The position numbers were made by a program, and so were the translations under genes. 64,000 nucleotides of DNA, from the IMG/VR virus record IMGVR_UViG_3300018050_002226. One strand, 5' to 3'. This stretch comes from a virus (lineage: Duplodnaviria > Heunggongvirae > Uroviricota > Caudoviricetes). Shown here one piece after another: positions 1,620 to 56,157 of this stretch (its first letter is position 1; each line of letters opens with the position of its first letter). The notes beneath the pieces are model-generated. The model did no database searches. It saw only the letters and a list, made by a program, of their open reading frames with translations, and was not told where the DNA came from.

Positions 1620-2318
1620 ATGATAAAAGATATTCTAACCATTGTAATCCCTTGTAAAAACGAAAGGGATTTGATTTCATTTACGTTGAAGTATTTGGAT
1701 AAACAAATCAACATCCACGGGACGAAGGTAATCATCGCTGATTCATCAGATGACCTTACAAGAGAAATAATTAACAACACCTATTGTCCCCATCTCAACG
1801 TTGAAATAATTGACGGAGGTTTCCCATCTGTAGCAAGAAACAATGGAGCAAAACTTGTTGATACACCATATGTTCTTTTCTTGGATGCAGATATTTTCTT
1901 ACATGATAATGAGACAATAGATAACTCTTTGAATTATATGATTAATAATTCACTTTATCTTGTTACTTGTAGATTCCGAACTCGTGGGAAATATTCATTG
2001 GTCTTCCCTATATTTGAATGGTTCAGAGATTTTTATTCTCATCACCTGCCATGTGCAATTGGTGGTTTTATGATGTTCGATAAAGAAGTTTTTGATAAAC
2101 TTGGAGGTTTTATTAATGAGGATTTATTTGCCGAAGACTTTCATCTATCTTCAAAAGTTCACCCATCAAAATTTGGAGTTTATAATAAAAAAATATATAC
2201 CACAGATAGAAGGTTCAAGAAAAAAGGTTTGTGGTACATGCTAAAAATGGCGGTTCTTTCTGCTGTTAATAAAGACAATCCTGAGTTTTTTAAAAATGAA
2301 CACAATTACTGGGTATAA
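1620..2318 (+). CDS. family 2 glycosyltransferase (GT-A fold)
   Basis: N-terminal IVIPCKNE motif, DAD (DxD) motif LFLDADIFL. Confidence 0.8.
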   Translation: MIKDILTIVIPCKNERDLISFTLKYLDKQINIHGTKVIIADSSDDLTREIINNTYCPHLNVEIIDGGFPSVARNNGAKLVDTPYVLFLDADIFLHDNETIDNSLNYMINNSLYLVTCRFRTRGKYSLVFPIFEWFRDFYSHHLPCAIGGFMMFDKEVFDKLGGFINEDLFAEDFHLSSKVHPSKFGVYNKKIYTTDRRFKKKGLWYMLKMAVLSAVNKDNPEFFKNEHNYWV

Positions 2319-7967: not shown

Positions 7968-9542
7968 TTGTTTATGAGTATATCTCAAAACCTAAGAACT
8001 ATTTTATTGGAAGATTTGGCTCTTCAAATACAACAACTTAAAGACAAATATGTTGGAGAAGGAAAACCCCTCAAAGACGAGGAGTTTCAAAAAATTCAAG
8101 ACCTCTCTCACGGTAAGTTTTATATTCTTGCTTGGCTTACAAAAAAAATTGGCACGAACCTCTTGAAATCTGAAGACCTATATAAGTGGAAAGAGTATAT
8201 TGATATTTTTGAAAAGAATAAAAAGAAATTCAAATTTCAGGACCTTAATCTTTACAAGACAGCAGAGGATTTACAAAACTTCATCGAAACTGTTATTCAA
8301 ATTAAAGAAGGAGACGTCAAATATGAGGATATTCCTCAATCCTCGGCATTTCTTTCAAAAAACGAAGTTGAGAAACTCACCTCCACGGGAGGAAACAAGT
8401 ATCTTGGTTTTTGGAAACCCGAAAATGGTCTAAAAGCTGCTGGCTCTGATGGTTACCAAGTTTTCGAAATTTCAGAACCCACAAGAGAAAATTGGAAAGT
8501 TTATCGTGATTTGTTGGGTAGATGTAAGGGACGCGAGAAGGGAGCTTCAATCGAAATTTGTACAATTGCACATTTTAACTACTTTAAGGATTATTTGAAA
8601 TCTGATAAAGGCTCAAAATATATTGTTCTTTTCAATCTCAACGACCCATTGTCGCCATATCAACTTCATGTAGAAAGCCAACAATTCATGAATAAAAACG
8701 ATGTGGAGAGATTTAATTTTATACCTCAAATTTTTTATAAGTGGCTTTCGGAAAAGTCCGAATACTACAATTATGAAAAAATCGCATCAAATTTAGAATT
8801 CGACATACCTGTTGAAGGAAAGGGTTTTGAAAATGAAAAAGGGAAACAAGGTATTTGGAAATCTTTTCACGATGGTAAGATAGATGGAATACTCACTTAC
8901 GTTAATAACAAGAGAAACGGACCAGTAATCCTATTTTCAAAAAACGGAAAGATTTCAGAAAAGGGAACGCTGAGGGAAACTAGGTCTGATTATAATTGGG
9001 TTGGAGAATACGAAAGTTTTTTTGATGACGGAACAATCGAAAAAAAGGGAAAGTACGATGAAAAAGGGAAAAAAATTGGGATTTGGAAAATTCACAATCG
9101 TTACACTCCTTTTGGTATTTATTATGTTATCAAAGACTTTGATGATGACAGAATTCCAGTCACCGGCATAACTCAAAGTGGTGTTATCAAAGTAATTGCT
9201 GACGGTGGAACACAAGATTTCAGGGGTAAAATAATTATTTTCTATCCAAGTGGTACCCCAAAAGCCATCGGCCAATTAACTACTTTAGGTAGGAAAACAG
9301 GGAAATGGACAATTTTCAAACCTGATGGCTCAATAAAGGCGGAGGGACAGTTTAAAAATGAACGCCCAACTGGAGATTGGACTTTTATATTTTCTTCCAA
9401 AAGGGGTGACGAATTTCTTTATCAATTTAATTGGGAAGAAAGAGAGAAAGGAAAACTTTATAACAGTAAAGGAGAATTTATTAAGAAAGTAGATTATCGC
9501 TCTGATAAAATTCCTTCAATCGGAGATTTTTTCAGTTTCTAA
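7968..9542 (+). CDS. MORN/YwqK-like repeat-containing protein
   Basis: repeated GxWxxYxxNGxxxxxG units in C-terminal half. Confidence 0.5.
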   Translation: MFMSISQNLRTILLEDLALQIQQLKDKYVGEGKPLKDEEFQKIQDLSHGKFYILAWLTKKIGTNLLKSEDLYKWKEYIDIFEKNKKKFKFQDLNLYKTAEDLQNFIETVIQIKEGDVKYEDIPQSSAFLSKNEVEKLTSTGGNKYLGFWKPENGLKAAGSDGYQVFEISEPTRENWKVYRDLLGRCKGREKGASIEICTIAHFNYFKDYLKSDKGSKYIVLFNLNDPLSPYQLHVESQQFMNKNDVERFNFIPQIFYKWLSEKSEYYNYEKIASNLEFDIPVEGKGFENEKGKQGIWKSFHDGKIDGILTYVNNKRNGPVILFSKNGKISEKGTLRETRSDYNWVGEYESFFDDGTIEKKGKYDEKGKKIGIWKIHNRYTPFGIYYVIKDFDDDRIPVTGITQSGVIKVIADGGTQDFRGKIIIFYPSGTPKAIGQLTTLGRKTGKWTIFKPDGSIKAEGQFKNERPTGDWTFIFSSKRGDEFLYQFNWEEREKGKLYNSKGEFIKKVDYRSDKIPSIGDFFSF

Positions 9543-10273: not shown

Positions 10274-10918
10274 TTATTTTACTATCCACCAAGTTCCCCA
10301 AATTTCGGTTGTTACATCTAATTCATATCCGTACTTTTCACAAAATTCATCAACCGCAGGATTAACTCCGAACACACCACTATAATACATTTTACCTCCG
10401 TGGATATTATACATATGTTTGTCTTTTTTATTGGGAAGGAAATTATTATCACCATACCAATCGATATTGATATAATCATGACCCGCAAAAATTCCACCCT
10501 TCTTAACTTTGGGAAACCAAAGTTCTAAATCTTTTTTTACGTGTTCATAGGAATGATTAGCATCAATATAAACAAAATCTAAAGATTCATTTTGGAACAA
10601 ACTTGAAGCGGTTTCGGAGGTAGCTCTTATTAGGTTTGCCCTATCTTCATTCCCCTTTATTACTTCACAGACTTCCATCATATAACCAAGTTGTTCATCA
10701 TCATTGCAAACATCTGTGTATTCTTCTCCGATTTTTCTCCAAATGTCGATTAAGAACATTGTTCCATTATCCCAAAGTCTCAAAATCTCTTTGGAAAGGT
10801 CGCCACGATAAACTCCAACTTCCGCACCAACTCCTTTACCAACAATGTTATTCAGGTCCCAAATCAAATCCAGTCCACCAACATACTTTCTCCTAAATTC
10901 TTTCATATTATTTTTCAT
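10274..10918 (-). CDS. class I SAM-dependent O-methyltransferase, Methyltransf_24/TylF-like
   Basis: EVGVYRG motif I; DFVYIDANHSYEHV and GGIFAGHDY motifs. Confidence 0.7.
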   Translation of the reverse strand: MKNNMKEFRRKYVGGLDLIWDLNNIVGKGVGAEVGVYRGDLSKEILRLWDNGTMFLIDIWRKIGEEYTDVCNDDEQLGYMMEVCEVIKGNEDRANLIRATSETASSLFQNESLDFVYIDANHSYEHVKKDLELWFPKVKKGGIFAGHDYINIDWYGDNNFLPNKKDKHMYNIHGGKMYYSGVFGVNPAVDEFCEKYGYELDVTTEIWGTWWIVK

Positions 10919-11225: not shown

Positions 11226-11825
11226 TCAATATGGATAATCATACCCGAACATTTCAAGATAATCTTTTGCCACATATTTTATATGTTCAATCATATCTTT
11301 TGTATAAAACTCTTTTTCTGCGTCACTGAAAAAAGTACCATTCATTCTTTTTTTACATAAATCATATAAAGCACCTGATTGACATATTTTTGAGTTGTAA
11401 ACGAAAGGAATTTTTATATAATCAGTCCACAGTTGCTCAACTCTAATCGGATAATCAGGTTTTCTATCTTGGAACATGATAAAACCCAAATCAAAGTTTC
11501 GTTCTGACTTTTCATGAAAAAAATTTCTGAAATTTTTGACAGTGAATTCATCTTTATTTGTTAATCTGTACTTGAATTCTGATACAAGTTTTGTGAAAGG
11601 ATTTCTTATGGTACAGATGAATTTGTAGTTATCGTGTCCTGTAAATAAATCCATAGCGTGATTATGACTCAAAAATTTTTCTCTCAAATCACTACCACCA
11701 GTGCTTTTAGTAACAAAATCAAAATGATTGAAAATAAAAGAAGCATGTAACGAACCAGTTTTAGGTGGCATCCACAAAAAGGCTTTGTTTTTTTCTGAAA
11801 TATTTACAGTATAGTTGTTTTTCAT
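11226..11825 (-). CDS. carbohydrate-type sulfotransferase-like protein (paralog of 22159..22758)
   Basis: 5'-PSB-like PPKTGS and 3'-PB-like RNPFTKLVSEF motifs. Confidence 0.6.
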   Translation of the reverse strand: MKNNYTVNISEKNKAFLWMPPKTGSLHASFIFNHFDFVTKSTGGSDLREKFLSHNHAMDLFTGHDNYKFICTIRNPFTKLVSEFKYRLTNKDEFTVKNFRNFFHEKSERNFDLGFIMFQDRKPDYPIRVEQLWTDYIKIPFVYNSKICQSGALYDLCKKRMNGTFFSDAEKEFYTKDMIEHIKYVAKDYLEMFGYDYPY

Positions 11826-13027
11826 ACAAATACTTTTGGAATTTCATCCCAATCTGTCGTAAACTTCTGTGAAATAAACTCCTGTCTCATTTCCCAATTC
11901 TTTTCAACATTTACAGGTGGTTGAACAATTTGTATTGAACTTGAAAACAATGTTGCCTGTTCAACATTCTCAGGCATTAATTCATTGAATATAATTCCAC
12001 ATTTTTTATACCTTTTTCCGTTTTTAAACATTTTTTTAAGGTGTGGATAAATTTGAGACCAAATTTGATTTATATCTCGGGTTTGTTGTTGAAATAATAT
12101 TTGTCTACTCGAATAATGTTTTTCATCCTTGTGTTTATTACCTGCCATGAAAATGGTTGCTCTATTTGGAGATATTCCATTATCTTCCAATTTTTTAACT
12201 CCGTTTTTAACATATGAATACATAGCCTCCGCAATTTGGTCAAAAGAATCAATGTCCTGTCCAAACGAACGTGTCGAGGCCACATTTCTTTTTAATTTTG
12301 GGACAGGTTGAATGGGATGACAATACATTCCAAGGATTTCCATTTTTGTTTTTAGACCGTTCACATTCATCATTTTTCTAACAAGTCCATCATTCAACAT
12401 AACAAATTGACCGATACTTTCAACACCAATCATTTTTAATTTCTTTGACCACTTTCTACCAATCCCCCAAACTTCGTCAACTGAAATATTATAAAGTGAA
12501 TTTCTAAAATTTTGTAAATTCCAATAAGAACAAACCCCATCATATGATGGTTGTTTTTTTGCAATGTGTGAAGTTAGTTTAGCTAAAGTTTTATTTGGTC
12601 CTACTCCAATTGAAACGGGAATACCTGTAAGTCTTTTAACTTCATTTCTTATTAGGTGTAGTCGGTCTAACAACTCTTCTGATGGGATGTTCGAGAAATC
12701 GACAAAACATTCATCAATTGAATACACTTCAACTTCATTCGCATACTTTTTTATGACCGTCATTACTCGGTCTGACATATCTCCGTATAGATTGTAATTA
12801 GAAGAATATACACAGAACCTGTGTTCTTCCATAAAATCCTTTTTTTGGAAGAATGGTTCACCCATCTTTATTCCGAGGTCTTTAGCTTCTTGCGAACGTG
12901 CAATTACACATCCATCGTTGTTTGATAATACGACAGTTGGTTTTCCGATTGATACGGGATTAAATACTCTTTCGCAACTTACATAGAAATTGTTACAGTC
13001 TACAATACCAATCTTTTTATTTTCCAT
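11822..13027 (-). CDS. umuC: Y-family translesion DNA polymerase, UmuC-like
   Basis: near-colinear match to UmuC N-terminus: VDCNNFYVSCERVF..KPTVVLSNNDGCVIARS..SSNYNLYGDMSDRVM..YSIDECF. Confidence 0.9.
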   Translation of the reverse strand: MENKKIGIVDCNNFYVSCERVFNPVSIGKPTVVLSNNDGCVIARSQEAKDLGIKMGEPFFQKKDFMEEHRFCVYSSNYNLYGDMSDRVMTVIKKYANEVEVYSIDECFVDFSNIPSEELLDRLHLIRNEVKRLTGIPVSIGVGPNKTLAKLTSHIAKKQPSYDGVCSYWNLQNFRNSLYNISVDEVWGIGRKWSKKLKMIGVESIGQFVMLNDGLVRKMMNVNGLKTKMEILGMYCHPIQPVPKLKRNVASTRSFGQDIDSFDQIAEAMYSYVKNGVKKLEDNGISPNRATIFMAGNKHKDEKHYSSRQILFQQQTRDINQIWSQIYPHLKKMFKNGKRYKKCGIIFNELMPENVEQATLFSSSIQIVQPPVNVEKNWEMRQEFISQKFTTDWDEIPKVFV

Positions 13028-13239
13028 CAGTAATAAACAATTATTTCCCCAGAATTGTGTGCAGGGACCTCAAAATTATAACCATTTTTTCTCAAAATGT
13101 CTACAACCAACTGGCTCATTTTATCAGACTTACCAGTGATGATTTTAACAGGAAATTTTGGTTCATTTAAGAACAAAAAATTCTTAACTTCCAACTCTAC
13201 ATCGTGATGAAGAAACCCGTGAAGGTCTAGCTTCTCCAT
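13027..13239 (-). CDS. stand-alone Smr domain protein
   Basis: LDLHG ... IITGKS motifs. Confidence 0.6.
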   Translation of the reverse strand: MEKLDLHGFLHHDVELEVKNFLFLNEPKFPVKIITGKSDKMSQLVVDILRKNGYNFEVPAHNSGEIIVYY

Positions 13240-13451
13240 AGTTTAGCGTTTTTATAAAACCAAAAAATATGGATTGTCATTACGGTTAGATTTACAACGA
13301 TTAATGGTCCGTCCATTTTTATCAAACCATAAATCGCCCAAGTGGATGTTGCCAAAAAGTTTGTAACTCTTAATCGGAGCATGTCTTTGAAAAGGAATGA
13401 ACCAATGACAAGTGCAGTTGCAACCCAACCAATCAAATCAACTAAATTCAT
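13227..13451 (-). CDS. small two-TM membrane protein
   Basis: hydrophobic segments. Confidence 0.4.
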   Translation of the reverse strand: MNLVDLIGWVATALVIGSFLFKDMLRLRVTNFLATSTWAIYGLIKMDGPLIVVNLTVMTIHIFWFYKNAKLWRS

Positions 13452-14053
13452 ATTTTGTATTTTAATTTTGAATAAGTTCGTTTCATAACACTCTTTACCT
13501 TTTCGAGGTATATCATTCTATCATTTTGTCCAACAAAAGGAACCGACCAAAATTGAACAACTTTTTGTCTGAACCAACCAAAACAAAATGAATAGACACC
13601 CATAACAAGTCTTAATTTTACTGAATTGAGATAGATTGTGTGTACAGGAAATGCGGGTGCTCCATGCGTCAAAAATGTTATGACTTTTTTATCTTTTAAT
13701 AGTGGAATTGGAATTCCATATTCCTTTGTTATTGGTCTAAACTTGTAGGCAAAGCCTGGTGTAAGAACTTTATCAAAAAATCCTTCAATCATCGGTGTCA
13801 ATCGGAACCACCAAACGGGTGAAGTTATTACAATAATATCAGCCTCACTGATAAGTTCTTGATACTCCAAAACTAACTGTTGGTTTCTTTCTGTTTCATT
13901 TTCTCTGATTATTGGTTCAAAATCCTCTTCATACAAATCAATGTTGATTACTGATATGTCCGAACTTGTTAATGAGAACTCACTAACAGTTTTATGGATT
14001 GCATGATTGAAACTGTTTTTATTGGGATGGCCAATGATGTTTAGTATTTTCAT
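13448..14053 (-). CDS. flavodoxin-like NAD(P)H:quinone oxidoreductase (KefF/MdaB-like)
   Basis: MKILNIIGHPNKNSF ... ITSPVWWF ... FAY motifs. Confidence 0.65.
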   Translation of the reverse strand: MKILNIIGHPNKNSFNHAIHKTVSEFSLTSSDISVINIDLYEEDFEPIIRENETERNQQLVLEYQELISEADIIVITSPVWWFRLTPMIEGFFDKVLTPGFAYKFRPITKEYGIPIPLLKDKKVITFLTHGAPAFPVHTIYLNSVKLRLVMGVYSFCFGWFRQKVVQFWSVPFVGQNDRMIYLEKVKSVMKRTYSKLKYKI

Positions 14054-14054
14054 T

Positions 14055-14372
14055 TTATAATTTATTTAAAATCCAATTTACCCTTCCCCACACATTTGTT
14101 TGTCCTTCAAACTTTCTAATGATAAAGTGTGACTTCTCAGTTAACACAACCAAATCATCCGTCTGTGGCTCAATAGAACGGTCTATAACGAGGATATTTC
14201 CTGTCTTAACTCCAAGTGTGTTTGGACCCATATAACGGAAATAAAAGGTCGTAAATGTGTTCTGAATGATTAAATCATTAAGGTCAAGTCGTTTGTCCAC
14301 ATAAGACTCGGCAGGTGAGGCAAAACCTGTGGTTCTTGACTTGATTTGAAGGTCTTGTGTTAGGGCACTCAT
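14055..14372 (-). CDS. umuD: UmuD'-like polymerase V accessory subunit (short N-arm, Ser nucleophile replaced)
   Basis: GFASPAESYVDKRLDLNDLIIQ aligns with UmuD GFPSPAADYVEQRIDLNQLLIQ; GDSM replaced by GPNT. Confidence 0.7.
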   Translation of the reverse strand: MSALTQDLQIKSRTTGFASPAESYVDKRLDLNDLIIQNTFTTFYFRYMGPNTLGVKTGNILVIDRSIEPQTDDLVVLTEKSHFIIRKFEGQTNVWGRVNWILNKL

Positions 14373-14430
14373 AATACAAAAATAAATCTTATTCTTTTAA
14401 TTTCAAAATTTTTTATTTAATCTTGTAATT

Positions 14431-14694
14431 ATGATTATGGAAACAGAAAAAACCCTTGTGATAAAGGACGTACCACAAAGCCAAGTATGTATGAATTGTA
14501 AATCTTGTCTTCGCATGAGACTTATGGAGATGGGAGTTGTACCTGGACAAAAAATTCGGCTGAAACAATATCAGAAATCTTTGTGGACACTCACAATCCT
14601 TGAAAATGACAATCCAATCTCAACGTATGGACTAAGAGAAGATGAGATTGAAAGAATTTTATTAGATGAAGAATGTATTGTATCTCTCGCTTGA
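14431..14694 (+). CDS. hypothetical protein
   Basis: ORF track. Confidence 0.4.
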   Translation: MIMETEKTLVIKDVPQSQVCMNCKSCLRMRLMEMGVVPGQKIRLKQYQKSLWTLTILENDNPISTYGLREDEIERILLDEECIVSLA

Positions 14695-15968: not shown

Positions 15969-17060
15969 TTAGTTCTGTAGAAGTTCTTCTGTTTTTTTCA
16001 ACGCCTGTGCAATGATTTGGTGCATGTCGTAATAAACGTATCTTGCTAAACGTCCACCGAATATGAATTTGGTTTCATTGTTTGCAAGATTTTCATATTT
16101 GAGATAGATTTTTGTATTTTCCTCATCTCTTATAGGATAAAAGGGTTCATTACGACCAGTATAGTTTGTTGGATATTCATAACTTACGATTGTGCCCTTT
16201 TGTTTTTGGTAGTCAAACCATTTGTGTTCAAGTATTCTAGTATATGGTGTTTCTTCGTCAGTATAATTGACAACAGGTACACCTTGATGATTATCAGTTT
16301 CTAAAGTGTGAGTAGACCATTCCAAACTCCTGTAGCCTAATTTTCCAAATTCGTAATTGTAGAATTTGTCGATGGGTCCAGTGTAAATTATTTTATCAGC
16401 AATTTGGTCGAAGTATTCTTTGTTCTCGAAGTAATCTGTGGAAGTTCTTACCTCAACTCCCTCTAACATTTTTTCAAAGATTTGAGTATATCCTCCAACA
16501 GGTATACCTGTGTATTTGTCATCAAAATAATTTGAGTCCCAAGTATATCTTACAGGTAATCTTTTAATTATTGATGGTGGTAAATTTTCACAAGAGGTGT
16601 TCCATTGTTTTTCAGTGTAACCTCTTATTAATTTTTCGAAGATGTCAAAACCCACCATTGAGATTGCCTGTTCTTTCAAATTAGTAATTTTACCTGAAAA
16701 AGACTGGCCTTTTATAATTTGACTGGCCTCTTCAGGAGAATTTACACCCCAAAGTTGATTGAATGTCCACATATTGAATGGTAAGGTGAACATTTGACCT
16801 TTATAATTTGCAATTACATTATGACAATACTGTTTGAAGTAAGCGAATTGGTTTACGTAATTCCATATTTTGTCATCGTTGGTATGAAAGATATGAGCAC
16901 CGTATTGATGAACGTGTATTCCATTTTGGTTTGAGGTATAACAATTTCCCGCGATATGATTTCTTTTATCTATGACCAAACATTTTTTTCCCGCCTTGTT
17001 CAGTTCATATGCGCAAACGGACCCAAAAGGGCCCGCTCCGACTATCAAAAAATCATACAT
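15969..17060 (-). CDS. glf: UDP-galactopyranose mutase
   Basis: FAD-binding GAGPFGS N-terminus; length and conserved blocks typical of Glf. Confidence 0.9.
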   Translation of the reverse strand: MYDFLIVGAGPFGSVCAYELNKAGKKCLVIDKRNHIAGNCYTSNQNGIHVHQYGAHIFHTNDDKIWNYVNQFAYFKQYCHNVIANYKGQMFTLPFNMWTFNQLWGVNSPEEASQIIKGQSFSGKITNLKEQAISMVGFDIFEKLIRGYTEKQWNTSCENLPPSIIKRLPVRYTWDSNYFDDKYTGIPVGGYTQIFEKMLEGVEVRTSTDYFENKEYFDQIADKIIYTGPIDKFYNYEFGKLGYRSLEWSTHTLETDNHQGVPVVNYTDEETPYTRILEHKWFDYQKQKGTIVSYEYPTNYTGRNEPFYPIRDEENTKIYLKYENLANNETKFIFGGRLARYVYYDMHQIIAQALKKTEELLQN

Positions 17061-18212
17061 TTAGAATTCGAATTTGAAACTTGAATTATCTATGATAGGA
17101 GTTTCCATCCTTTTAATTATTTTTTCTCTATATTCAAACAAATAATTACTTGTGTTCGCATAAGCTCTATCCTCAATTAAGAAAGAAGAGTTAGGGAAAG
17201 GATTTTTTCTTTCAGGTTGAACCATATATTCAATATTTTTCAATATCTCATCAAATCTCTCTAATTTTTCCAAAATGAAATTTGCATATATTAAGTGTTC
17301 ATTTCTGTTGGGTGCGAACTCTCCAGCTTTATTCATGTATTGGAGGGATTTTTCAATTTCACCCATAAATTCATACGCGTGAGCCATCATTATTAGTGCG
17401 AAATATCCCATTTCATCAAGTCTTGTTACACTTTTGGTAATATCCCATTGGAAATTATATTCGAACCATCTATCGTAATACCAAACACTTCTTCTAGCAT
17501 ATTCGTCAGCGTGTTTTTTTCCGAAAGGAAGTTGTGAAAAGTCTCCGTAACAATCAGAGTAACTTTTTGCAATATACCACAAATGATAAGGGTCCTCAAG
17601 GACGGTGTTACCAACCACCTTGTCCATTTCAAGTTCCAACGCATCTTTGAGAAACTTTCTCGGTGCAGCCCATGTTTCACCGTCCTGAGATACAAGATGC
17701 CTAAAACCACTCGGCATTGTAATTCTTACAAATCCTTCACCAATTTCGGGAAGATGAATTGTTTCATGACGTTTATCGTGTTGGAAGAACCATGGTCTTT
17801 TAGCATTCCAAAACCAAGTTCTGAGATATCTTAGTTCACCATTCTGAGCAACCATGTTGAAACTGTCTATTGATGTATCTTCCAAGACACTCCAATCAAA
17901 ATCAGGGTCAACGTGTAACCTTTCGTCAGCGTCCATTCTTAGAATCCAATCACATCCATGGTCAGACTTCAAACATGTTTGTAAGGTGTGGTCTCTATTC
18001 CAACCAGGAAAATTCCATTCAATTTGATAAGTAAAACCAGGTTTGTTTTTACTATTGAAAAAATCTTGAATAATTTTTTCTGTGTTGTCATTTCCATTAC
18101 ATTGGATAACCCAATAGTCAATGTACGGTTCAGCGGATTCTAACATCCTCAAAATGGTTTTGGACTCATTTCCAACCATTGCATTCAAACAAATTTTTGT
18201 TTTCTTACTCAT
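17061..18212 (-). CDS. family 2 glycosyltransferase (candidate galactofuranosyltransferase)
   Basis: NESKTILRMLES; RMDADERL (DxD); adjacent to glf. Confidence 0.6.
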   Translation of the reverse strand: MSKKTKICLNAMVGNESKTILRMLESAEPYIDYWVIQCNGNDNTEKIIQDFFNSKNKPGFTYQIEWNFPGWNRDHTLQTCLKSDHGCDWILRMDADERLHVDPDFDWSVLEDTSIDSFNMVAQNGELRYLRTWFWNAKRPWFFQHDKRHETIHLPEIGEGFVRITMPSGFRHLVSQDGETWAAPRKFLKDALELEMDKVVGNTVLEDPYHLWYIAKSYSDCYGDFSQLPFGKKHADEYARRSVWYYDRWFEYNFQWDITKSVTRLDEMGYFALIMMAHAYEFMGEIEKSLQYMNKAGEFAPNRNEHLIYANFILEKLERFDEILKNIEYMVQPERKNPFPNSSFLIEDRAYANTSNYLFEYREKIIKRMETPIIDNSSFKFEF

Positions 18213-19452
18213 AAATGTAGTTCATTACTTCTTCTTCTTTGTAATACTTTCTAATGGGAACTCTGTTTTGAAATCTTTGTGAATGTTTTGTTTCTTCATC
18301 CCAATTCCAATCTTTGAACCCAAGCTCAAGTATACGGTTATGAATTGCCTCATCATAATAATCTCTTATGAGACGGGCTCTTCGGTTTATATCTGTTGCA
18401 TTATTATCAACTGTGCTATTTCTATTGTTGTATTGTAAGTACAAGCATTTTTTTACGTGTATAATTCTTGTATGAAGAAAACTTCTTATAATAATTTCAA
18501 AGTCATCAGCAACGGGCGTTGTCTTGTTATGACCTCCGATTGAATGATAGAAATTCCTTTCCCACATCCTTACATGGTTCGGCATTGAAATATTGAATCT
18601 AATAGATAAAGGATTGATATCTGGATACCAATGAGCCAATATATCCGTTCCGTCTACTTTCACCCAACTATGTCCCGCATAACCGAAATCAAAATAGTTG
18701 TCGTGGCGGGCATACCAATTTCCTGTCCAATCATGGTCATAATGTTTCATTTCACCATCATCGTAAAGCTCAGCGACGTCTGAATATAAAAACCCAGAAT
18801 CAGGATGTTTTTCTATTGCAGCATTACAAGTTGATAAACAATCACTTGTCAAATAATCATCATGGTCTAATTCAACCAACCAGTCTCCATCACTGAGAGA
18901 AGCCGCTCTGTTCTTAGCTAATCCAACAATTCCACCCGAAGTGGGATAAATTCTATGAAGCTTTACTCTATAATCTTTTTTTGAGATTTCAACGAGTAAT
19001 TTCCAAGTTTCCTCATCAGGAGAGTCGTCAACAACAACCCATTCCCAATTAGTCCATTTTTGATTTTGAAGACTTTTATAGGTTCTTTTAATTCTTTCAC
19101 CTGTTTTGTAAACAGGAGTAAAAATTGAAAACCTTGGTCTTTGAACTTCACAAGATTTATAAACCGCGTTTTTCACTATTTCATTTGCAAGTTCATAATC
19201 ATTAAGAGGTTCATCAAAATGTGAATGTATTCTTTGTAATTGATAATGTGGTAAATCTATTTTTTTACCGAACGAAATTATTAGGTCTGGTCTATATTTG
19301 GTGTAATCTTCTAACCAACTCGATGAGTCCGGTAAAGAAAAAACCATAACTTCATCCCATAAACCCTCTTCGGTATAGATGTTACTTTCTAAAACTTCTT
19401 CACCTAATTTGTACCATCCGTAGATGATTGCACTTGGCTTTTTTGTAATCAT
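18205..19452 (-). CDS. family 2 glycosyltransferase
   Basis: FTPVYKTGERIKRTYKSL; VVDDSPD; ELDHDDYL. Confidence 0.75.
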   Translation of the reverse strand: MITKKPSAIIYGWYKLGEEVLESNIYTEEGLWDEVMVFSLPDSSSWLEDYTKYRPDLIISFGKKIDLPHYQLQRIHSHFDEPLNDYELANEIVKNAVYKSCEVQRPRFSIFTPVYKTGERIKRTYKSLQNQKWTNWEWVVVDDSPDEETWKLLVEISKKDYRVKLHRIYPTSGGIVGLAKNRAASLSDGDWLVELDHDDYLTSDCLSTCNAAIEKHPDSGFLYSDVAELYDDGEMKHYDHDWTGNWYARHDNYFDFGYAGHSWVKVDGTDILAHWYPDINPLSIRFNISMPNHVRMWERNFYHSIGGHNKTTPVADDFEIIIRSFLHTRIIHVKKCLYLQYNNRNSTVDNNATDINRRARLIRDYYDEAIHNRILELGFKDWNWDEETKHSQRFQNRVPIRKYYKEEEVMNYIYE

Positions 19453-25654: not shown

Positions 25655-26218
25655 TTATTCCATTACCGGCAAAATTCCTGATGGATTTTTATAAGAGTCT
25701 CCCATAATTCTATAAGTTACAATTTCTCCTAAATCAGGAAAGCTTATTTGTTCCACCACAATACCCCACTTTTCAACTTCATTATTAACAGCCGGTGTAA
25801 CGGTGTTACCAAGTTCATAAAGGTCACTCCAATTTGAGCTTTCTACCACGTCTCGAATAATACCTTGTGTTGTATCAATTAAAACATCATTCGCGTGCAT
25901 TACGCCCAAGAGAAATTTTTCAACGTCATCAATGTGATAACGGACAATACTCGAAAGAACGACACTTTTTTCATCCAAGGATGTCACCGTTTGAGGTTTT
26001 AAGTTTACCGTTTGGGTAATGACAGGAGTAGTTAAAATTTGGTCAAAAAAAGGGATTTTCCAGTTCAAACCAGGAAGAACTACTCTCAGAAACTTTCCGG
26101 TTCTAAGATGAACTCCTTGTTCCCATTGGTCTACGATTTTCCAAGGTAAAATGTCATTAATAAAAGTAACGATTAGGTCAATGAGTTTGTCAAACATATC
26201 TTTTCTTTTATGATACAA
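25655..26218 (-). CDS. SPFH/band-7 (prohibitin/HflK-like) domain protein
   Basis: VDQWEQGVHLRTGKF..VLPGLNWKIPFFDQI..IVRYHIDD pattern. Confidence 0.6.
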   Translation of the reverse strand: MYHKRKDMFDKLIDLIVTFINDILPWKIVDQWEQGVHLRTGKFLRVVLPGLNWKIPFFDQILTTPVITQTVNLKPQTVTSLDEKSVVLSSIVRYHIDDVEKFLLGVMHANDVLIDTTQGIIRDVVESSNWSDLYELGNTVTPAVNNEVEKWGIVVEQISFPDLGEIVTYRIMGDSYKNPSGILPVME

Positions 26219-26275: not shown

Positions 26276-27316
26276 TTAGAATTCGGTGTCTGCACTTGCA
26301 ACCCTTGTAGTTGGTTTTGTTGTGGTTTCAGAATTAGAAGGTTGAGAGTTTGCACCAAATTGTGATTGTGCGAACTTTTGGAAACCTTTAGATGCGCTTG
26401 GGATTTGAGCTTTAGGTGGAGTTGTATCAATTTTCGTGGAAGATTGAGATTGTGTTGTATCTACTTTTGATGAAGTTGTTGTATTTGTAGTAGGAGATGA
26501 ATTAAGATAATTTACCCTTTGAAGTTTCCACCATTTATTTGTTCTCGGACCAAATTTACCATAACCTTTAGGGACGCTACCATTCAGAACTTTGTATTTG
26601 TCATGCCAACCCTCATGGTTTTTATCTAACCAATCTTGGAATTTTTTTACACCCTCGATGTCTTTCAATTCTGATGGAATTGGAACAGCTTTTTTAGGGG
26701 CAACTGTTTGTGAATTTTTCTTATCAAATAATTTGTATTCATCCACTTCTGAAGAATCAACATCTGTTATTTCAACAACACCAGGTTTAGTTTTACTACA
26801 TTTGTATGTATACTTGTACTTATCCCCACTTTCGACATATATTGCTTTTCCGTCAGGCCAAAATCTCCAAACGTGAACCGGTTTTCCAATGCCGTCAGAG
26901 CTTACTAAAGCTGTTGTGATTTCTTTATATTCTTCACCGTTGAATCCAATACAAGATACATCTATTTTGAGGTTTGCCGCTTGAACACCTTGTTGTATAG
27001 CTTTTCCAACTCCTGTGTCAGAGGTTTGTTTGTTAGCGGTACTTGTATCAACCGCGGAGGTAGGAGTTTGAGTGCCCCCAAAAACAGATTTTAATGTGTT
27101 TGTTTTCAACTTTCCCTGTTTAGCTAAATCGTCAGCTGCTTTGGCTGTCACAGGACCAAAACCTTGAGTTAATGCTGCTTGTTGGTTTGTTGTGAGATTG
27201 GCTTTTTGTTCGAGGACTATCAACTTATTTTCGTTCAAAGTTTTTGATGAATCATAATTCATTCTCAATTTGATTGTTTCTAAAGCCTCCTGAGGCGAAA
27301 GTTTTTTTATGTACAT
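26276..27316 (-). CDS. Thr/Ser/Gln-rich low-complexity protein (start at Met MYIKK; long form would read through a terminator)
   Basis: ORF track 26276..27451 trimmed. Confidence 0.45.
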   Translation of the reverse strand: MYIKKLSPQEALETIKLRMNYDSSKTLNENKLIVLEQKANLTTNQQAALTQGFGPVTAKAADDLAKQGKLKTNTLKSVFGGTQTPTSAVDTSTANKQTSDTGVGKAIQQGVQAANLKIDVSCIGFNGEEYKEITTALVSSDGIGKPVHVWRFWPDGKAIYVESGDKYKYTYKCSKTKPGVVEITDVDSSEVDEYKLFDKKNSQTVAPKKAVPIPSELKDIEGVKKFQDWLDKNHEGWHDKYKVLNGSVPKGYGKFGPRTNKWWKLQRVNYLNSSPTTNTTTSSKVDTTQSQSSTKIDTTPPKAQIPSASKGFQKFAQSQFGANSQPSNSETTTKPTTRVASADTEF

Positions 27317-27340
27317 CGTATTTTTTCTTATAAATACTTC

Positions 27341-27377
27341 AAAAAACAAAAAACCCCAACCGTAGAGACGGTCAGGG
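27341..27377 (-). terminator. strong minus-strand terminator: CCCTGACCGTCTCTACGGTTGGGG hairpin + TTTTTTGTTTTTT
   Basis: seen in sequence. Confidence 0.55.
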
Positions 27378-28349
27378 TCAGGCAAAAAACTCTGAGAATA
27401 CAAGCTTTGTTGAGAATCTTTAGAAGGATTATTTATTCCCTCCGTTTCCACTGTCTTTTGAACAGTAACTCTCAGTGACGGTCAATTAGATTAACCAATC
27501 CTTAAATCGTTGAATACTCTCTCCTTACTCATCACTCTTCGAGGTTGCCACCCCAATTCTTCCTTGCGGGAATAGAGAACTTTCGTGAAAATCGTGAAGG
27601 GCTTGGGACCCAACACGGTCATGAACATCTCAAGACTATGTAGTCACCTGTTTCCAACGACTGACAGACACTTTTCCTTGATTTTAATTATAAGTTGTTA
27701 AACCAGAATTAACAATTAAGGGTTGGTTTACGGATGTGGAAAGTAGCGGTCTGTCACCAGCCGTGTCGCCTTTTGAACGACACGATACTAAACTACTCTC
27801 TGAAGTCTCCCGACCTCCATACTTCAAGTCAACTTCAGTGATACGCTCTTGGTAGAGACGTTTCAAGGTTAATAACAGCACCACCTGTACATCAACTTAC
27901 CTTTCGGTTTTAAGTCAACTTTCATATTGAATTACGTGATGACTATGGTGGAAGCCATAATTTCTCACATAGATTCCTCAGGTTATTCTTATTAGTCTTC
28001 CGACCTCAACGAGACGACCCGTATCGCCCCGTATTCCAACCACTTTCCCTACAGTGTTACCCTCAGTACTAAAGGTCAGAACATATCCTGATTGCCTACT
28101 CGAGTACCCCTTTGATACCGCAGAACACTAAAACCTGGTGTCCCACTTTATACTACTTTCGTAGTTTATTTAATGACCATAGGCGGCCAATATCTTAAAA
28201 CAAAGAACTATCAAGTATTGAAGGAGAGTGGAAATTTTTTACAACCCCCGACTTCGGTAAGGAACTTTACAACCCTTTTCCTTCAACTGTCTTACAAAAT
28301 TAAGAAGAACTTTTCAATTCGTCAAATTTTTATAAAACTTTTTTTTTCG
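27378..28349 (-). ncRNA. candidate large structured non-coding RNA directly 3' of tRNA-Met on same strand (identity unknown)
   Basis: ~970 nt with no credible ORF in a gene-dense genome; visibly higher GC; many local hairpins; bounded by tRNA and terminator. Confidence 0.3.
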
Positions 28350-28422
28350 TTGCATGGGTCAGAATCGAACTGACGACCTCCAGGTTATGAGCCTGGCGAG
28401 CTACCGCTGCTACTACCATGCG
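28350..28422 (-). tRNA. tRNA-fMet: tRNA-Met (anticodon CAT), initiator-like (C1.A72 mismatch)
   Basis: 73-nt cloverleaf built by hand: acceptor CGCATGG/CCATGCA, U8, D-loop GG, anticodon loop CUCAUAA, T-loop TTCGATT; CCA not encoded. Confidence 0.85.
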
Positions 28423-31703: not shown

Positions 31704-31727
31704 TAAAAAAAGGGGTTTTTAAACCCC
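31704..31727 (-). terminator. terminator hairpin GGGGTTTTTAAACCCC + T-run overlapping stop of methyltransferase gene
   Basis: seen in sequence. Confidence 0.45.
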
Positions 31728-32582
31728 TTCTTCAAAATCTAATTTAGATTGTTTCTTTTTATCGATAAATTGTTGAACTCTCTTTTTAGCAATTTCACAA
31801 TAGTTCGGACTGAGTTCAATACCTACCCAGTTTCTTCCTGATATTACTGCCGCAACTGGAGTTGTACCAGAACCACAGAAAGGGTCTAAAACGACGTCAT
31901 TTTTGTAAGTGAGTATCTTCATAGCTTTCATTGGAATGTCCAAGGAAAAGGTTGCTTTGGTCATTTGTTTAGTGTCTGCAAAATATGTCCACTGTCCATA
32001 AACCAAATCCATAAACTCTTTCTTCTGTTCTTCAGTATAGAGAGTTTTTTTCTTTTTCGTTCCATCCTCTTGTTCAATCTCATCAATCACCCCAACCCAC
32101 TCGGGTTCTCCCTTAACAATCTTAATATGTTTAGACTTGTAAGCCAAGATAACACACTCTTTCGGATTGTAGATGTAAGGTGCAGAAGGAGACATCCATG
32201 AACCCCAAGCCGTTGTCTTACTTCTATGTGGAGAATCTTCATCTAAATCCACAATACCATAAAATTTAAAACCAATTCTTTGCATAATCTGCCAAAGTTC
32301 AGAGGCAATAAAAACTCTACCTCCTTTATCCTGTCGATTGATTTCATAAGGAACATTAAGAGCAATTCTACCATCCGCCTTCAGAACTCTATAAGCCTCG
32401 GTGAGCCATTTCTTTGAAAAGTCTTTGTAGTCCTCTATGTTCATATCATCATCAAATGAATCATATTCAATACCCACTCCATAGGGTGGTGAAGTAACAA
32501 TAAGGTCAATAGAGTTTTCAGGCATTTTAGCCATCTCAATTATACAATCACCATTTATTATATTTCCTAAAAAATTTTCCAT
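31719..32582 (-). CDS. DNA methyltransferase, beta-class N6A/N4C (SPPY)
   Basis: DLIVTSPPYGVG (motif IV) precedes VLDPFCGSGTT (motif I). Confidence 0.85.
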   Translation of the reverse strand: MENFLGNIINGDCIIEMAKMPENSIDLIVTSPPYGVGIEYDSFDDDMNIEDYKDFSKKWLTEAYRVLKADGRIALNVPYEINRQDKGGRVFIASELWQIMQRIGFKFYGIVDLDEDSPHRSKTTAWGSWMSPSAPYIYNPKECVILAYKSKHIKIVKGEPEWVGVIDEIEQEDGTKKKKTLYTEEQKKEFMDLVYGQWTYFADTKQMTKATFSLDIPMKAMKILTYKNDVVLDPFCGSGTTPVAAVISGRNWVGIELSPNYCEIAKKRVQQFIDKKKQSKLDFEEGV

Positions 32583-40593: not shown

Positions 40594-40611
40594 AAAAACC
40601 CTTTTTTTTTT
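40586..40611. terminator. bidirectional terminator GGGTTTAAAAAAACCC flanked by T10 / A-run between convergent genes
   Basis: seen in sequence. Confidence 0.5.
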
Positions 40612-43600
40612 ACTTAACTTTCATTTCAAGTTTTTCAAGTCTCTCCTCTTTTTCATCTAATAATAAAGACTGTTCTTTTATAGCTTGAAGACATAAAGCA
40701 ATAACTTCAGAGTATTTTACCATATAATGAGAATCTTTCTGATTCTTTTTGAATACAAGTTCAGGGAATATTTGTTGAATTTCTTGAGCGATAAATCCAA
40801 TGTCACTTACTTGAGGTCCGTGAGATTTGGTATCAATATTTTTCCACTCGAAAGATACACCTCTAAGTTTAAGAACTTTTGGTAAAACATTTTCAATCGA
40901 TTTAATGTTTTTCTTTACTCTATAATCCGAAGGTCCTGTTGCACCTTGAGCACCCTGAGCACCCTGAGGTCCCGTCCCACCTGCCGGACCTTGTGGTCCT
41001 GTAGGTCCTTTTGGACCTTGCGCACCTTGAGCTCCCGTTCCTCCTGGTGAACCTGTAGGTCCAAGTGGACCTTTTGCACCTTGTGAACCTTGAGCTCCTG
41101 TAGCTCCTGTAGGTCCTTGAGCTCCTTGACCACCCGCTGGTCCTTGAGCTCCTTGCGCACCTGTAATACCTGTTGCTCCAGCCGGTCCAACTGCACCTTG
41201 AGCTCCCTGACCACCTGTTCCACCTCCTCCCCCTTGAGCTCCTTGAGCACCTTGTCCACCAGCTGGTCCTTGTGCACCTTGAGCTCCACCTGGGCCTTGT
41301 GACCCTTGTGCTCCTTGACCACCCGCTGGTCCTTGAGCTCCTTGACCACCTTGAGGGCCTTGAGCTCCTTGAGCTCCTTGACCACCCGCAGGTCCTTGAG
41401 CTCCTTGACCACCTTGAGGACCTTGAGCTCCTTGTGCTCCCTGTCCTCCAGCCGGTCCCTGCGAACCTTGACCACCTTGTGGACCCTGAGCTCCTTGGGC
41501 ACCTTGACCTCCAGCTGGTCCTTGGGCACCTTGACCACCTGTTCCACCTATTAATCCTTGGGCGCCTTGTCCTCCAGTTGGTCCTTGTGAACCTTGTCCA
41601 CCTTGTGGACCCTGAGCTCCTTGGGCACCTTGACCTCCAGCTGGTCCTTGTGCACCTGTAGGTCCAAGGGGTCCTTTTTGACCTTGGGCACCTTGACCTC
41701 CACCAGGTCCCTGCGCACCTGTTGAACCTTGAGGCCCTTGAGCACCTTGTGCTCCTTGTCCTCCTGTTGGACCTTGAGCTCCTGTTGAACCTACAGGTCC
41801 TTGAGCACCTTGTGCTCCTTGACCTCCAGCGGCACCACCACCACCTTGGGCTCCTTGTCCACCTTGAGCTCCTTGGGTTCCTTGTCCACCTTGAGCCCCT
41901 TGACCACCTTGGGCTCCCTGTCCACCCTGTGAACCTTGAGTACCTTGACCTCCTTGAGCTCCTTGTCCACCTTGTGAACCTTGACCACCTTGAGCACCTT
42001 GAGCACCTTGAACACCACCCGGTCCTTGAGCTCCTGTTGAACCTTGAGGTCCTTGAGCACCTTGGGCTCCTTGTACACCGCCCGGTCCTTGAGCTCCTGT
42101 TGAACCTTGAGGTCCTTGAGCACCTTGGGCTCCCTGAGCACCGAGAGCTCCTTTAGCTCCAAAAGAACCCTGAGCACCTTGACCACCTTGGGCTCCTTGT
42201 CCTCCTTGAGCACCTTGACCACCTTGGGCTCCCTGTCCTCCTTGTGCACCCTGTCCACCTTGTCCGCCTTGGGCTCCTTGCCCTCCTTGAGCACCTTGAC
42301 CACCTTGGGCTCCTTGGGCTCCTTGTACACCGGTTGGACCTTGTGCCCCTGTGGGACCTTGAGGACCTTGACCACCTTGGGCTCCCTGTCCACCAGTAGG
42401 CCCTTGAGCACCTTGTGTACCTTGCGGTCCTTGTGTACCCTGAGCACCCTGTACACCAGCTGGACCCTGAGCACCAGTTAAACCCTGAGGACCTTGAGCA
42501 CCCTGTGCACCTGTCCCCCCTTGAGCACCTTGAGGTCCTTGAGCACCTTGTCCACCTTGAGCACCCTGTGTTCCTTGTCCACCTTGGGCACCTTGTCCCC
42601 CTACGGCACCCTGAGCACCTTGAGAACCCTGTACTCCTTTTGCACCTTGAGCACCTTGACCACCTTGAGCACCTTGACCACCTTGGGCTCCTTGGGCACC
42701 TTGTCCTCCTTGAGAACCCTGAGCTCCTTGTACCCCTTGAGCCCCTTGTCCTCCTTGAGCACCTTGACCACCCTGTGCACCCTGTCCTCCTTGAGAACCT
42801 TGAGCACCTACAGGTCCCTGTGAACCCTGACCACCTTGTGAACCTTGTCCACCTGTAGAACCCTGAGAACCTTGCCCTCCTTGAGCACCTTGTCCTCCTT
42901 GAGAACCTTGACCCCCCGTAAGACCCTGAGCACCTTGACCACCCTGTGCACCTTGACCACCCTGTGCACCTTGTCCTCCTTGGGCTCCTTGACCACCTTG
43001 GGCTCCTTGTGCTCCCTGACTTCCAGGTTGACCAATATCTCCTTGAGCTCCCTGTGCACCTTGCACTCCTTGCGCACCTTGTCCACCCTGTGCACCTTGT
43101 AGACCGGTTATTCCCTGAGAACCTTGAGCTCCTTGGGCACCCGTTCCTCCTTGAGAGCCTTGTCCCCCAACCGCGCCTTGTGCTCCCTGTGCTCCTTGTA
43201 CTCCTTGAGCACCTACCGCTCCTTGAGAACCTTGAGCTCCTTGTGACCCTTGGCCTCCTTGCGCACCTTGTCCTCCAATATTTCCCTGGGCACCTTGGTC
43301 TCCTTGAGCACCTTGTGCACCTTGTGAACCCTGAGCGAGTTTGTTTCCTAACCAACCTGTAGAATTAATTAATGGGCTTAGAGCATTATTACTTAATGAA
43401 TTTTCCAAGTAAATTGGAAAATCTGACCTTAATATATTTCCAGATGTGTGAATACTTAAATAAGCAGTACCTGCAGCATTATTATATGGTACAAATTTCA
43501 GAACCCCACCTTCCAATACCCAGTTCACAAATGTATCTGCACTACTTACAAGTTGCATTAAAGATAGTGAAGGAGCAACAATAATGTTTTCAGCAGTCCC

Positions 43601-43786
43601 ATTATTATCGCAATCTACAGAAGTTGTGGTTACATTAGTAAATGTTGCAGTGTCTTTTATACAAGGAGTATAAAGTGAAACCCCTTGATTAACATTACTA
43701 CTTACTGCGGTTAAAGATGCACAGAGTTCTCCACTCCATGAACCACCTCCTGTACCACCAACTACTTTATATATCTTACAAGCCAT
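40610..43786 (-). CDS. tail fibre/spike protein A: N-terminal domain, ~800-aa collagen-like G-X-Y tract, C-terminal intramolecular chaperone (peptidase S74-like) domain
   Basis: C-terminus [10 protein letters not shown]...LRGVSFEWK...[16 protein letters not shown] matches the endosialidase chaperone domain pattern. Confidence 0.8.
40931..43330. repeat. GXY-coding low-complexity repeat (collagen-like tract of fibre A)
   Basis: CCTTGAGCACC-type 9-bp periodicity. Confidence 0.8.
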
Positions 43787-43787
43787 C

Positions 43788-46700: not shown

Positions 46701-46907
46701 ATATAATCCTGAATTATTTATAGTTAATCCTGAAGTTCTTATACCTTGAGGACCAATCATTAATCCTTGCGTGAATGTTCCCGCAGAAAAATTTAAAGTT
46801 CTTGCCGTTACAAAAAAAGCAACTTGATTGCTTCCATCATCCCAATAAAACCAAGGTCTACTATCGTAAGCATTACCCTGAGGAAATATCTTTAGTTCGT
46901 TCGGCAT
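43788..46907 (-). CDS. tail fibre/spike protein B: collagen-like tract ~840 aa + C-terminal S74-like chaperone domain
   Basis: C-terminus [13 protein letters not shown]...SVSFEWD...[16 protein letters not shown]. Confidence 0.8.
44133..46658. repeat. GXY-coding repeat (fibre B)
   Basis: as above. Confidence 0.8.
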
Positions 46908-56120: not shown

Positions 56121-56157
56121 GAATAAAATATAACACAAAAAAAATCAAAAAGCAAAT

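Follow-up and report, generated by a model that had tools for sequence, protein, structure and literature searches.

Can a DNA polymerase of the polymerase V (Pol V) type work without RecA? Textbooks present Pol V as a hazardous polymerase restrained by three RecA-dependent locks, namely repression by LexA, cleavage of UmuD and the recruitment of a RecA-ATP subunit. The question arises from a locus in a 64,000-nt stretch of DNA from a Caudoviricetes virus (IMG/VR record IMGVR_UViG_3300018050_002226; hereafter the window, meaning the whole stretch analysed), in which a UmuD-like accessory subunit of 105 aa (14055..14372) and a UmuC-type Y-family DNA polymerase of 401 aa (11822..13027) are encoded on the minus strand, with three co-oriented genes between them. 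An initial annotation, made from the sequence alone, had described an expanded umuD'-umuC operon with a non-cleavable, RecA-independent UmuD'; the open reading frames (ORFs) that it listed, their coordinates and the three intervening genes were all recovered in our ORF and domain calls. Judging by motif content, three links to RecA and the SOS response appear to be missing from this system: a LexA operator of any known type, RecA*-stimulated cleavage of UmuD, and RecA-NT, the RecA-docking element of UmuC. Our preferred reading, to which we assign a probability of about 0.55, is that the pair forms a constitutive phage Pol V-like enzyme free of LexA control, UmuD cleavage and RecA docking.

Members of the UmuD-like family, which we refer to as mini-UmuD, are found on IMG/VR viral contigs of up to 321 kb, and no relative above 39% identity was recovered among 185,579 species-representative cellular genomes. 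The size of these contigs and the lack of a close cellular relative together place the locus in a clade of large (jumbo) phages, referred to below as the phage clade. Three alignment-derived features that appear to define the system were not part of the initial annotation and are described here: the loss of RecA-NT across the UmuC proteins of the phage clade, an internal deletion in the UmuD-like protein, and the loss of the residue corresponding to UmuD Lys97.

A reduced and putatively protease-dead UmuD homolog

The UmuD-like protein matches the NCBIfam UmuD model PRK10276 with an E-value of 3e-18 (65.9 bits, against a cutoff of 110), remains just below the Pfam cutoff (21.4 vs 23.3), and retrieves the UmuD' chain 1umu from the PDB in a phmmer search (E 1.5e-10). 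An AlphaFold2 model built with 58 homologs is confident over residues ~41–100 (predicted local distance difference test score >90), with a disordered N-terminal arm, and its best PDB matches are the UmuD' structures 1ay9 and 1umu at template-modelling scores of 0.66–0.68, ahead of the C-terminal domains of LexA and lambda cI. The alternative that the initial annotation had itself raised, a LexA/cI-type repressor with a helix-turn-helix, was looked into and rejected: no helix-turn-helix was found, the protein is only 105 aa long, it has a conserved umuC partner, and its best fold match is UmuD'.

To place individual residues, the protein was mapped onto UmuD by HMMER alignment to solved UmuD and UmuD' chains, by a MAFFT alignment with 120 homologs and E. 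coli UmuD, and by a MAFFT alignment with E. coli UmuD and the phage P1 protein HumD, and all three agree. Residues T15-G16 correspond to the UmuD cleavage site C24-G25, which confirms the earlier description of a UmuD homolog starting about 15 residues before the cleavage position and carrying TG there; across the family the residue preceding the Gly is Thr in 114 of 121 proteins and Ser in the other 7. The nucleophile motif G58-D59-S60-M61 of UmuD is represented by G49-P50-N51-T52, so that the Ser60 nucleophile is replaced by Asn (codon N51, 14220..14222), and none of the alignments, including those with UmuD and HumD, restores a Ser at this position, in keeping with the substitution first proposed. 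Family-wide, the position is occupied by Asp in 56, Asn in 48, Ser in 7, Glu in 7, Ala in 2 and Thr in 1 of the 121 sequences. The general base fares no better: in the segment F83-I84-I85-R86-K87, R86 (codon 14115..14117) lies opposite Lys97 and K87 opposite Lys98, the Ala of the K97A chain in PDB entry 8gmt aligns with R86, and Arg is found at this position in 117 of 121 family members. The Lys region that had been thought retained has therefore lost its catalytic Lys, the remaining one matching Lys98. Since both dyad residues are gone across the family, the protein cannot cleave itself and must act as made, which strengthens the earlier proposal of a non-cleavable UmuD.

Beyond the dyad, about 22–26 residues following the Lys region are deleted, equivalent to UmuD ~101–126 in the MAFFT alignments, and the C-terminal strand is retained (VWGRVNWILNKL vs VFGVVIHVVKAM in UmuD). 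With this hairpin gone, the protein is reduced to an N-terminal arm and a beta-barrel core. UmuD D91 and E93 form an acidic patch that contacts RecA (PMC9926225); in the HMMER alignment these positions read K80 and H82 in the phage protein.

The N-terminal region falls into two parts. Ahead of T15-G16 lies an extension of residues 1–14 (14331..14372), whose length is conserved in the family together with L8, I10 and T14; no alternative start codon is present near G16. The arm proper, residues 15–33 (TGFASPAESYVDKRLDLND; 14274..14330), is homologous to UmuD' 24–42 and aligns with UmuD' GFPSPAADYVEQRIDLNQ. Within it the stretch TTGFASPAESYVDKRLDLN is nearly invariant in the family alignment, with G16, F17, S19, P20, A21, Y24, R28 and N32 fully so. 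In the published Pol V model, the UmuD' arm is the element inserted into UmuC, between the palm and the little finger near the active site (PMC11791011). Whether the mini-UmuD is made in a pre-activated state, as the initial annotation proposed, is a matter of inference, since an uncleavable and partly conserved 15-residue extension precedes the Gly.

The family comprises more than 330 metagenome homologs of constant length at 55–91% identity, with 25 invariant alignment columns. Nonsynonymous divergence (dN) ranges from 0.12 to 0.38 for both Pol V genes (0.13–0.38 for the UmuD-like gene), and synonymous divergence (dS) is saturated; because overlong N-termini were taken for some loci (identities 0.41–0.46 for L007, L009 and L017), we rely on no more than the qualitative finding that dN lies far below dS. 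Both the UmuD-like gene and umuC are under purifying selection. The UmuD-like protein is thus a conserved, functional and protease-dead mini-UmuD.

A catalytically equipped UmuC lacking the RecA-NT motif

The partner polymerase is readily recognizable as UmuC. It matches the Pfam families IMS (E 7e-36), IMS_C and IMS_HHH, with a partial match to DUF4113, and scores 294 bits (E 1.8e-87) against the NCBIfam UmuC model, below the cutoff of 431, with Pol IV as the next model at 154 bits. It is 35% identical to E. coli UmuC, and the catalytic carboxylates D10, D105 and E106 as well as the steric-gate residue Y15 are aligned and invariant, a residue conservation that predicts a catalytically intact enzyme. 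The beta-clamp-binding motif QATLF (QxxLF type; residues 357–361, 11945..11959) lies opposite the QLNLF of E. coli UmuC, and its Q357, L360 and F361 are invariant.

At the C-terminal end, residues 378–401 (WEMRQEFISQKFTTDWDEIPKVFV; 11825..11896) constitute a tail that covers DUF4113 positions 26–51 and is aligned to QWQMKRAMLSPRYTTRSSDLLRVK of the E. coli protein, W378–V401 pairing with E. coli UmuC 398–422. In E. coli, this C-terminal tail is the main UmuD'-binding site (PMC6511836, PMC11791011); according to the published model of Pol V, the sheet of UmuD' gains a strand from the C-terminus of UmuC (PMC11791011).

What lies between the clamp motif and the tail differs. In E. coli UmuC this segment spans 37 residues and contains RecA-NT, whose helix and strand imitate the oligomerisation motif of RecA and serve to dock it (PMC6511836), whereas in the phage UmuC it is a short Pro-containing linker of 16 residues including Pro-Pro (residues 362–377, SSSIQIVQPPVNVEKN; 11897..11944), amounting to a deletion of 21 residues. 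The Pfam DUF4113 match accordingly covers model positions 1–51 in E. coli UmuC and 2–49 in canonical prophage UmuCs, whereas in the window UmuC and in every phage-clade UmuC tested it is limited to the part from 26, 27 or 28 to 51. A linker of ~16 residues was found in ~20 distinct UmuCs of the clade, in each one with a locatable clamp motif; the canonical UmuCs all carry LMxAxDxxNxxxGRG where the clade has the short linker. The linker is itself conserved across the phage clade, with a consensus of roughly x-x-I-Q-L/I-V/I-Q-P/A-P-x-N, a pattern suggestive of a novel binding role more than of a scar left by a simple deletion.

The loss of RecA-NT, which had escaped the initial annotation, is the strongest argument for RecA independence. 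It supports and strengthens the earlier suggestion of a RecA-independent enzyme, in the sense that such independence is what the missing motifs would predict.

An upstream region without LexA boxes of known type

The UmuD-like gene is separated from a divergent FeoA-like ORF by an AT-rich region of 58 bp (14373..14430), which, read on the minus strand, contains weak sigma-70-like matches but lacks an SOS box. A search of 14340..14520 with 11 LexA-box patterns, two of them ad hoc and the others of published type, gave no match, and the equivalent upstream regions of the phage clade are likewise AT-rich and hold no LexA box of known type. Canonical prophage-type relatives carry clear GTTC-N7-GTTC repeats or palindromic operators at the matching position. 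The result of this search, which the initial annotation had proposed as a check, is consistent with its SOS-independent reading.

A wider scan for sigma-70 promoters and terminators barely exceeded the shuffled background (23 sites vs 16.0 +/- 3.5) in this AT-rich DNA, and no conclusion is drawn from it. The best sigma-70-like match, TAGACA-17-TATAAT (11/12; 13075..13103, minus strand), falls within the Smr-like gene, a short way upstream of umuC; an internal promoter and a chance occurrence in AT-rich DNA are both conceivable, and here too we draw no conclusion. The divergent ORF (14431..14694, plus strand) encodes an 87-aa protein with a FeoA domain (Pfam E 2.7e-6), and a FeoA-like copy that is 50% identical lies upstream of the Pol V pair in two related loci (L007 and L008).

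Variable cargo between the two Pol V genes

In the window, the UmuD-like gene and umuC are 1027 bp apart, and the space is filled by three genes. The first (13448..14053) encodes a flavodoxin-like-fold NAD(P)H oxidoreductase of 201 aa (Pfam Flavodoxin_2 E 1.1e-26, FMN_red E 1.8e-10). It is followed by a 74-aa SemiSWEET/PQ-loop-like membrane protein (13227..13451) with three hydrophobic segments, which reaches 24.1 bits against Pfam MtN3_slv (cutoff 23.7) and matches NCBIfam SemiSWEET_2 weakly. The third is a standalone Smr-like protein of 70 aa (13027..13239), whose own match to Pfam Smr (PF01713) is weak (17 bits vs a cutoff of 25.7; E 0.0066). Its assignment comes from its homologs, since all six examined from related phages match Pfam Smr, the best with an E-value of 8.7e-8; their alignment shows no variation in LDLHG and ITGxS, and a profile of that alignment searched against PDB sequences found no Smr structure.

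The initial annotation had treated the expanded operon as a functional unit, and one may indeed picture the five genes as a single module in which an Smr nickase and a quinone reductase, together with the membrane protein, aid the polymerase, for instance by nicking at lesions or in the face of oxidative damage. The arrangement lends itself to this idea: the five ORFs, all on one strand, adjoin or overlap by 1–13 nt and are probably transcribed together, a sister lineage has a Flavodoxin_2 gene in the corresponding slot, and several relatives carry Smr homologs no more than a few kb from their Pol V genes. The identical five-gene order also recurs in several independent metagenome samples and is therefore no assembly artefact. 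A wider comparison nevertheless makes such a module improbable. In most related loci the UmuD-like gene lies directly upstream of umuC, with gaps of 3–132 bp, and inserts are confined to the nearest relatives of the window and differ in content, being 376 bp in L015, a 4HBT thioesterase and an Endonuclease VII in L007 and L008, Flavodoxin_2 and 4HBT in L006 and L009–L014, and Flavodoxin_2, the membrane protein and Smr in the window (13027..14053). The Flavodoxin_2 homologs in L006 and L009–L014 are 55–59% identical to that of the window, and most relatives lack one. The membrane protein has no homolog in the related loci searched, apart from the contigs of the same arrangement, which carry the same 74-aa gene in the junction slot, and the Smr homologs of other phages (L017, L027–L029, L041 and L043–L046) stand outside the Pol V pair, 1.3–4 kb away. 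Downstream of umuC, moreover, the co-directional block continues into a sulfotransferase-like ORF (11226..11825) and a methyltransferase gene (10274..10918), so that an operon in this region has no functional boundary.

As the Pol V genes are mostly adjacent and the inserts differ, the junction is a variable cargo slot and not a five-gene module. The Pol V pair retains its synteny across phages that diverge to 53% identity, and the ancestral unit is the two-gene pair. The three intervening genes are cargo specific to the lineage and do not encode parts of the polymerase; they are probably co-transcribed with it because of their position between its two genes. In one sub-lineage the junction is an insertion hotspot that has also received nuclease-type genes typical of mobile phage DNA, and the expanded operon is in this respect ordinary, a cargo-insertion hotspot of a type common in large phage genomes.

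Relationship to known Pol V and UmuD-type systems

With the Pol V mutasome of E. coli (UmuD'2C-RecA-ATP) and its plasmid/ICE homologs MucAB and RumAB, the phage pair shares a UmuC-type Y-family subunit that has both a clamp motif and a tail for UmuD' binding, and an S24-fold subunit with a GF(P/A)SPA..Y..R.DLN arm, encoded upstream of the polymerase gene. It differs from all three in having no Ser-Lys dyad, no Cys/Ala-Gly cleavage site, no RecA*-driven maturation and no counterpart of UmuD ~101–126, in a UmuC without RecA-NT, in the lack of a LexA box of known type, and in its location in a large-phage locus without a close relative in the cellular genomes searched.

HumD of phage P1, to which the UmuD-like protein had initially been compared and which we examined in the copy of the P1-like phage RCS47, is likewise a phage-encoded UmuD-family protein that needs no cleavage. 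The comparison does not extend much further. HumD starts exactly at the cleavage-site Gly (MGFPSPA...), whereas the UmuD-like protein has 15 residues before Gly16; in the alignment, HumD has retained Ser and Lys residues at the dyad positions or right beside them, along with a full-length C-terminal half, whereas the phage protein has neither dyad residue and carries the deletion. On account of that start and those residues, the phage protein is not HumD-like, and it matches the HumD model NF051876 with only 42 bits (E 8e-11; cutoff 120). The HumD gene of RCS47 has no adjacent umuC, and HumD is reported to work with the UmuC of its host; the phage UmuD-like protein has a UmuC of its own. Another parallel is the engineered non-cleavable UmuD of Beuning et al. 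(2006; cited in PMC3901139), which, too, remains uncleaved and has an altered N-terminal arm, and which reportedly mimics UmuD'. It is, however, a laboratory mutant of E. coli UmuD that still works within a RecA-dependent Pol V, whereas the phage protein represents a natural, conserved family.

Among Gram-positive bacteria, YqjW-YqjX of B. subtilis and UvrX-YolD of SP-beta have been proposed as Pol V counterparts, and they resemble the phage pair in placing a non-proteolytic subunit, composed of an arm and an SH3-like beta-barrel, next to a UmuC-like polymerase; UvrX-YolD is also phage-borne, being carried by the prophage SP-beta. YolD and YqjX have no sequence similarity to UmuD (PMC6511836), whereas the phage protein is clearly UmuD-homologous, and YqjW and UvrX keep RecA-NT (PMC6511836, PMC12926913), which the phage UmuC does not. 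The UmuD-like protein has no match to Pfam YolD (PF08863), and the likeness is architectural only.

The nearest cellular-type group is a UmuD-like family of 121 proteins, a few of them labelled Treponema sp. (the P0271 group: P0271 and P0279–P0397; loci L050–L053). It shares with the phage family the T/S-Gly site, the loss of Ser60, here replaced by Asp or Glu (120/121), the replacement of Lys97 by Arg (121/121), the TTGFASPA arm, and a short N-terminal extension, which in most of its members amounts to 5–12 residues before the Gly. It differs in its full-length C-terminal half, in a partner UmuC that keeps RecA-NT, and in being only about 43% identical to the phage clade; palindromic operators (ACTATAC-N4-GTATAGT) are present upstream in L050 and L052. 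A search of the representative library returned many further short UmuD-like proteins with Thr-Gly, neither Ser nor Lys, and a short C-terminal part. Protease-dead UmuD with Asp, Asn or Glu and Arg in place of the Ser-Lys dyad thus appears to be a recurrent, wider class that includes phage and Treponema-associated members. In the literature searched, we found no description of such a class or of a phage or jumbo-phage UmuDC with a dead dyad.

The phage clade is the most reduced form of protease-dead UmuD and the only one observed here whose partner also lacks RecA-NT. When over 3000 representative species of bacteria were surveyed, the Y-family groups reported to be wholly devoid of RecA-NT numbered just four, all of them small and none consisting of UmuC (PMC12926913). 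The kind of system, Pol V, is known; what is new is its natural minimal form, uncleavable and without RecA-NT, for which RecA independence would be the expected consequence.

A proposed constitutive enzyme and its alternatives

In the preferred reading of a constitutive Pol V-like enzyme, phage promoters would drive expression of the pair in the course of infection, UmuC would dock through its tail on a probably dimeric mini-UmuD, and the mini-UmuD arm would be inserted beside the polymerase active site. The complex would be active as translated, and a beta-type sliding clamp would bring it to phage forks stalled at lesions such as UV photoproducts; neither host RecA filaments nor SOS induction would be needed. 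A stronger version, which we put forward tentatively and hold to be somewhat short of an even chance, is a natural Pol V without any RecA, consisting of UmuC and the uncleavable mini-UmuD, whose extended arm would replace RecA-ATP as the activator.

Several points weigh against a constitutive enzyme. E. coli UmuD'2C by itself is nearly inactive. Each Pol V homolog assayed biochemically requires its cognate RecA (PMC13062779, PMC12926913). Uncleaved UmuD, in the form of UmuD2C, is non-mutagenic in E. coli (PMC6511836), and the free N-terminus of UmuD' lies near the active site in the published model (PMC11791011), so the 15-residue extension could block the polymerase instead of activating it. 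RecA or a phage recombinase could bind via another surface, and the conserved short linker (IQ-hydrophobic-x-Q-P-P) and the N-terminal extension could themselves be new docking sites for either. The tight packing of the five genes adds that the cargo may be co-expressed with the polymerase and have some functional link to it. The UmuD' mimicry attributed to the engineered non-cleavable UmuD, on the other hand, implies that an uncleaved protein is not necessarily inactive.

These points feed most directly into a rival in which only the proteolytic and LexA controls have been lost and the polymerase still depends on a RecA-family protein, either host RecA or a phage UvsX/RecA-like recombinase, engaged through the short linker or the extended arm. 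That all characterised Pol V enzymes require RecA speaks for it, as does the conservation of the 16-residue linker and of the extension in both sequence and length, which suggests a binding function; the Treponema-associated proteins, protease-dead and yet partnered with a UmuC that keeps RecA-NT, further indicate that loss of cleavage does not by itself imply loss of RecA use. Against this, the helix and strand of RecA-NT cannot fit into 16 residues that include Pro-Pro, and no RecA-like gene was found among the ~55 ORFs scanned in the window, a scan that was not exhaustive. On balance we regard continued RecA dependence as unlikely, though with a real share of the probability.

The residues ahead of the cleavage-site Gly, reminiscent of uncleaved UmuD, and the non-mutagenic nature of E. 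coli UmuD2C (PMC6511836) could also be read as signs of a brake or decoy comparable to full-length UmuD in the checkpoint of E. coli, one that would keep UmuC, be it of the phage or of the host, in an inactive state or disturb host RecA*/SOS signalling. Such a role sits poorly with the strict pairing of the gene with a UmuC that is catalytically intact and has conserved its tail for UmuD' binding, and with the non-conservation of the acidic RecA-contact patch; a brake that cleavage could not release would render a conserved polymerase useless, and the non-cleavable, altered-arm UmuD is reported to act as a UmuD' mimic. We give it very little chance. Finally, the loss of catalytic residues, the internal deletion and the scores below the Pfam and NCBIfam cutoffs might suggest that the UmuD-like gene is a functionless, decaying remnant of a cellular umuD, but its conservation effectively refutes this, given the >330 homologs, which do not vary in length and share 25 invariant columns, the low dN against saturated dS, the synteny with umuC kept across phages diverging to 53% identity, and the confident core of the AlphaFold2 model.

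Phage context and other features of the window

The window has a G+C content of ~33% and derives from an AT-rich phage. A blastn search of the locus against 50,697 phage records gave no match, and the phage is thus not represented in INPHARED at the DNA level; PHROGs searches with ten large window proteins returned families of unknown function only. The closest samples of the phage clade are environmental metagenomes from JGI/ENA, which, going by the sample series, we take to be of freshwater origin. A Bacteroidota origin, guessed from a homolog labelled 'Flavobacteriaceae MAG' (metagenome-assembled genome) and from the TTGFASPA arm, was not borne out, as the nearest cellular-type group is the one labelled Treponema; the Flavobacteriaceae label probably reflects a mis-binned phage contig.

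Elsewhere in the window, a full-length GOLLD RNA (RF02032; 324.5 bits, model positions 1–416) lies at 27389..27800 on the minus strand, ~550 bp from a tRNA-Met(CAT) at 28349..28422 (minus strand). An ORF at 26276..27451 that starts with GTG has ~60 nt in common with the end of the GOLLD match, and its N-terminus may therefore be over-extended. Three tandem ORFs of 1058, 1039 and 1109 aa (40610..50236, minus strand) stand out by a G+C content of 46–57% against ~33%; the first, which was scanned (40610..43786), encodes a collagen-like protein (Pfam Collagen E 9e-55) that has a Peptidase_S74 (endosialidase-chaperone) domain at its C-terminal end, as is typical of a phage fibre. A sugar-modification cluster at 15969..19452 (minus strand) comprises a UDP-galactopyranose mutase (GLF, E 1e-73), then a 383-aa ORF without a Pfam match and a family-2 glycosyltransferase, and a further family-2 glycosyltransferase is encoded at 1620..2318 (plus strand). 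The window also holds an N6/N4 DNA methylase (31719..32582, minus strand), a Dam-type (D12) methyltransferase (55281..56138, minus strand), a full DnaJ with J domain, Zn finger and C-terminal domain (56484..57401, minus strand), an SPFH/Band-7 protein (25655..26218, minus strand) and a MORN-repeat protein (7968..9542, plus strand).

Implications for Pol V biology

In the phage clade, all three locks on Pol V appear to be missing, yet the polymerase itself has been retained along with its clamp motif and the UmuD-UmuC interface, a combination that offers a handle on the catalytic contribution of RecA and on the role of the UmuD' arm. If the preferred reading is true, this would be the first UmuC/UmuD-type enzyme free of LexA, of RecA*-mediated cleavage and of RecA docking, and would provide a minimal system in which to define what RecA does in Pol V. 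In ecological terms, it suggests that large freshwater phages may bring along their own lesion-bypass enzyme rather than depend on the SOS response of their hosts.

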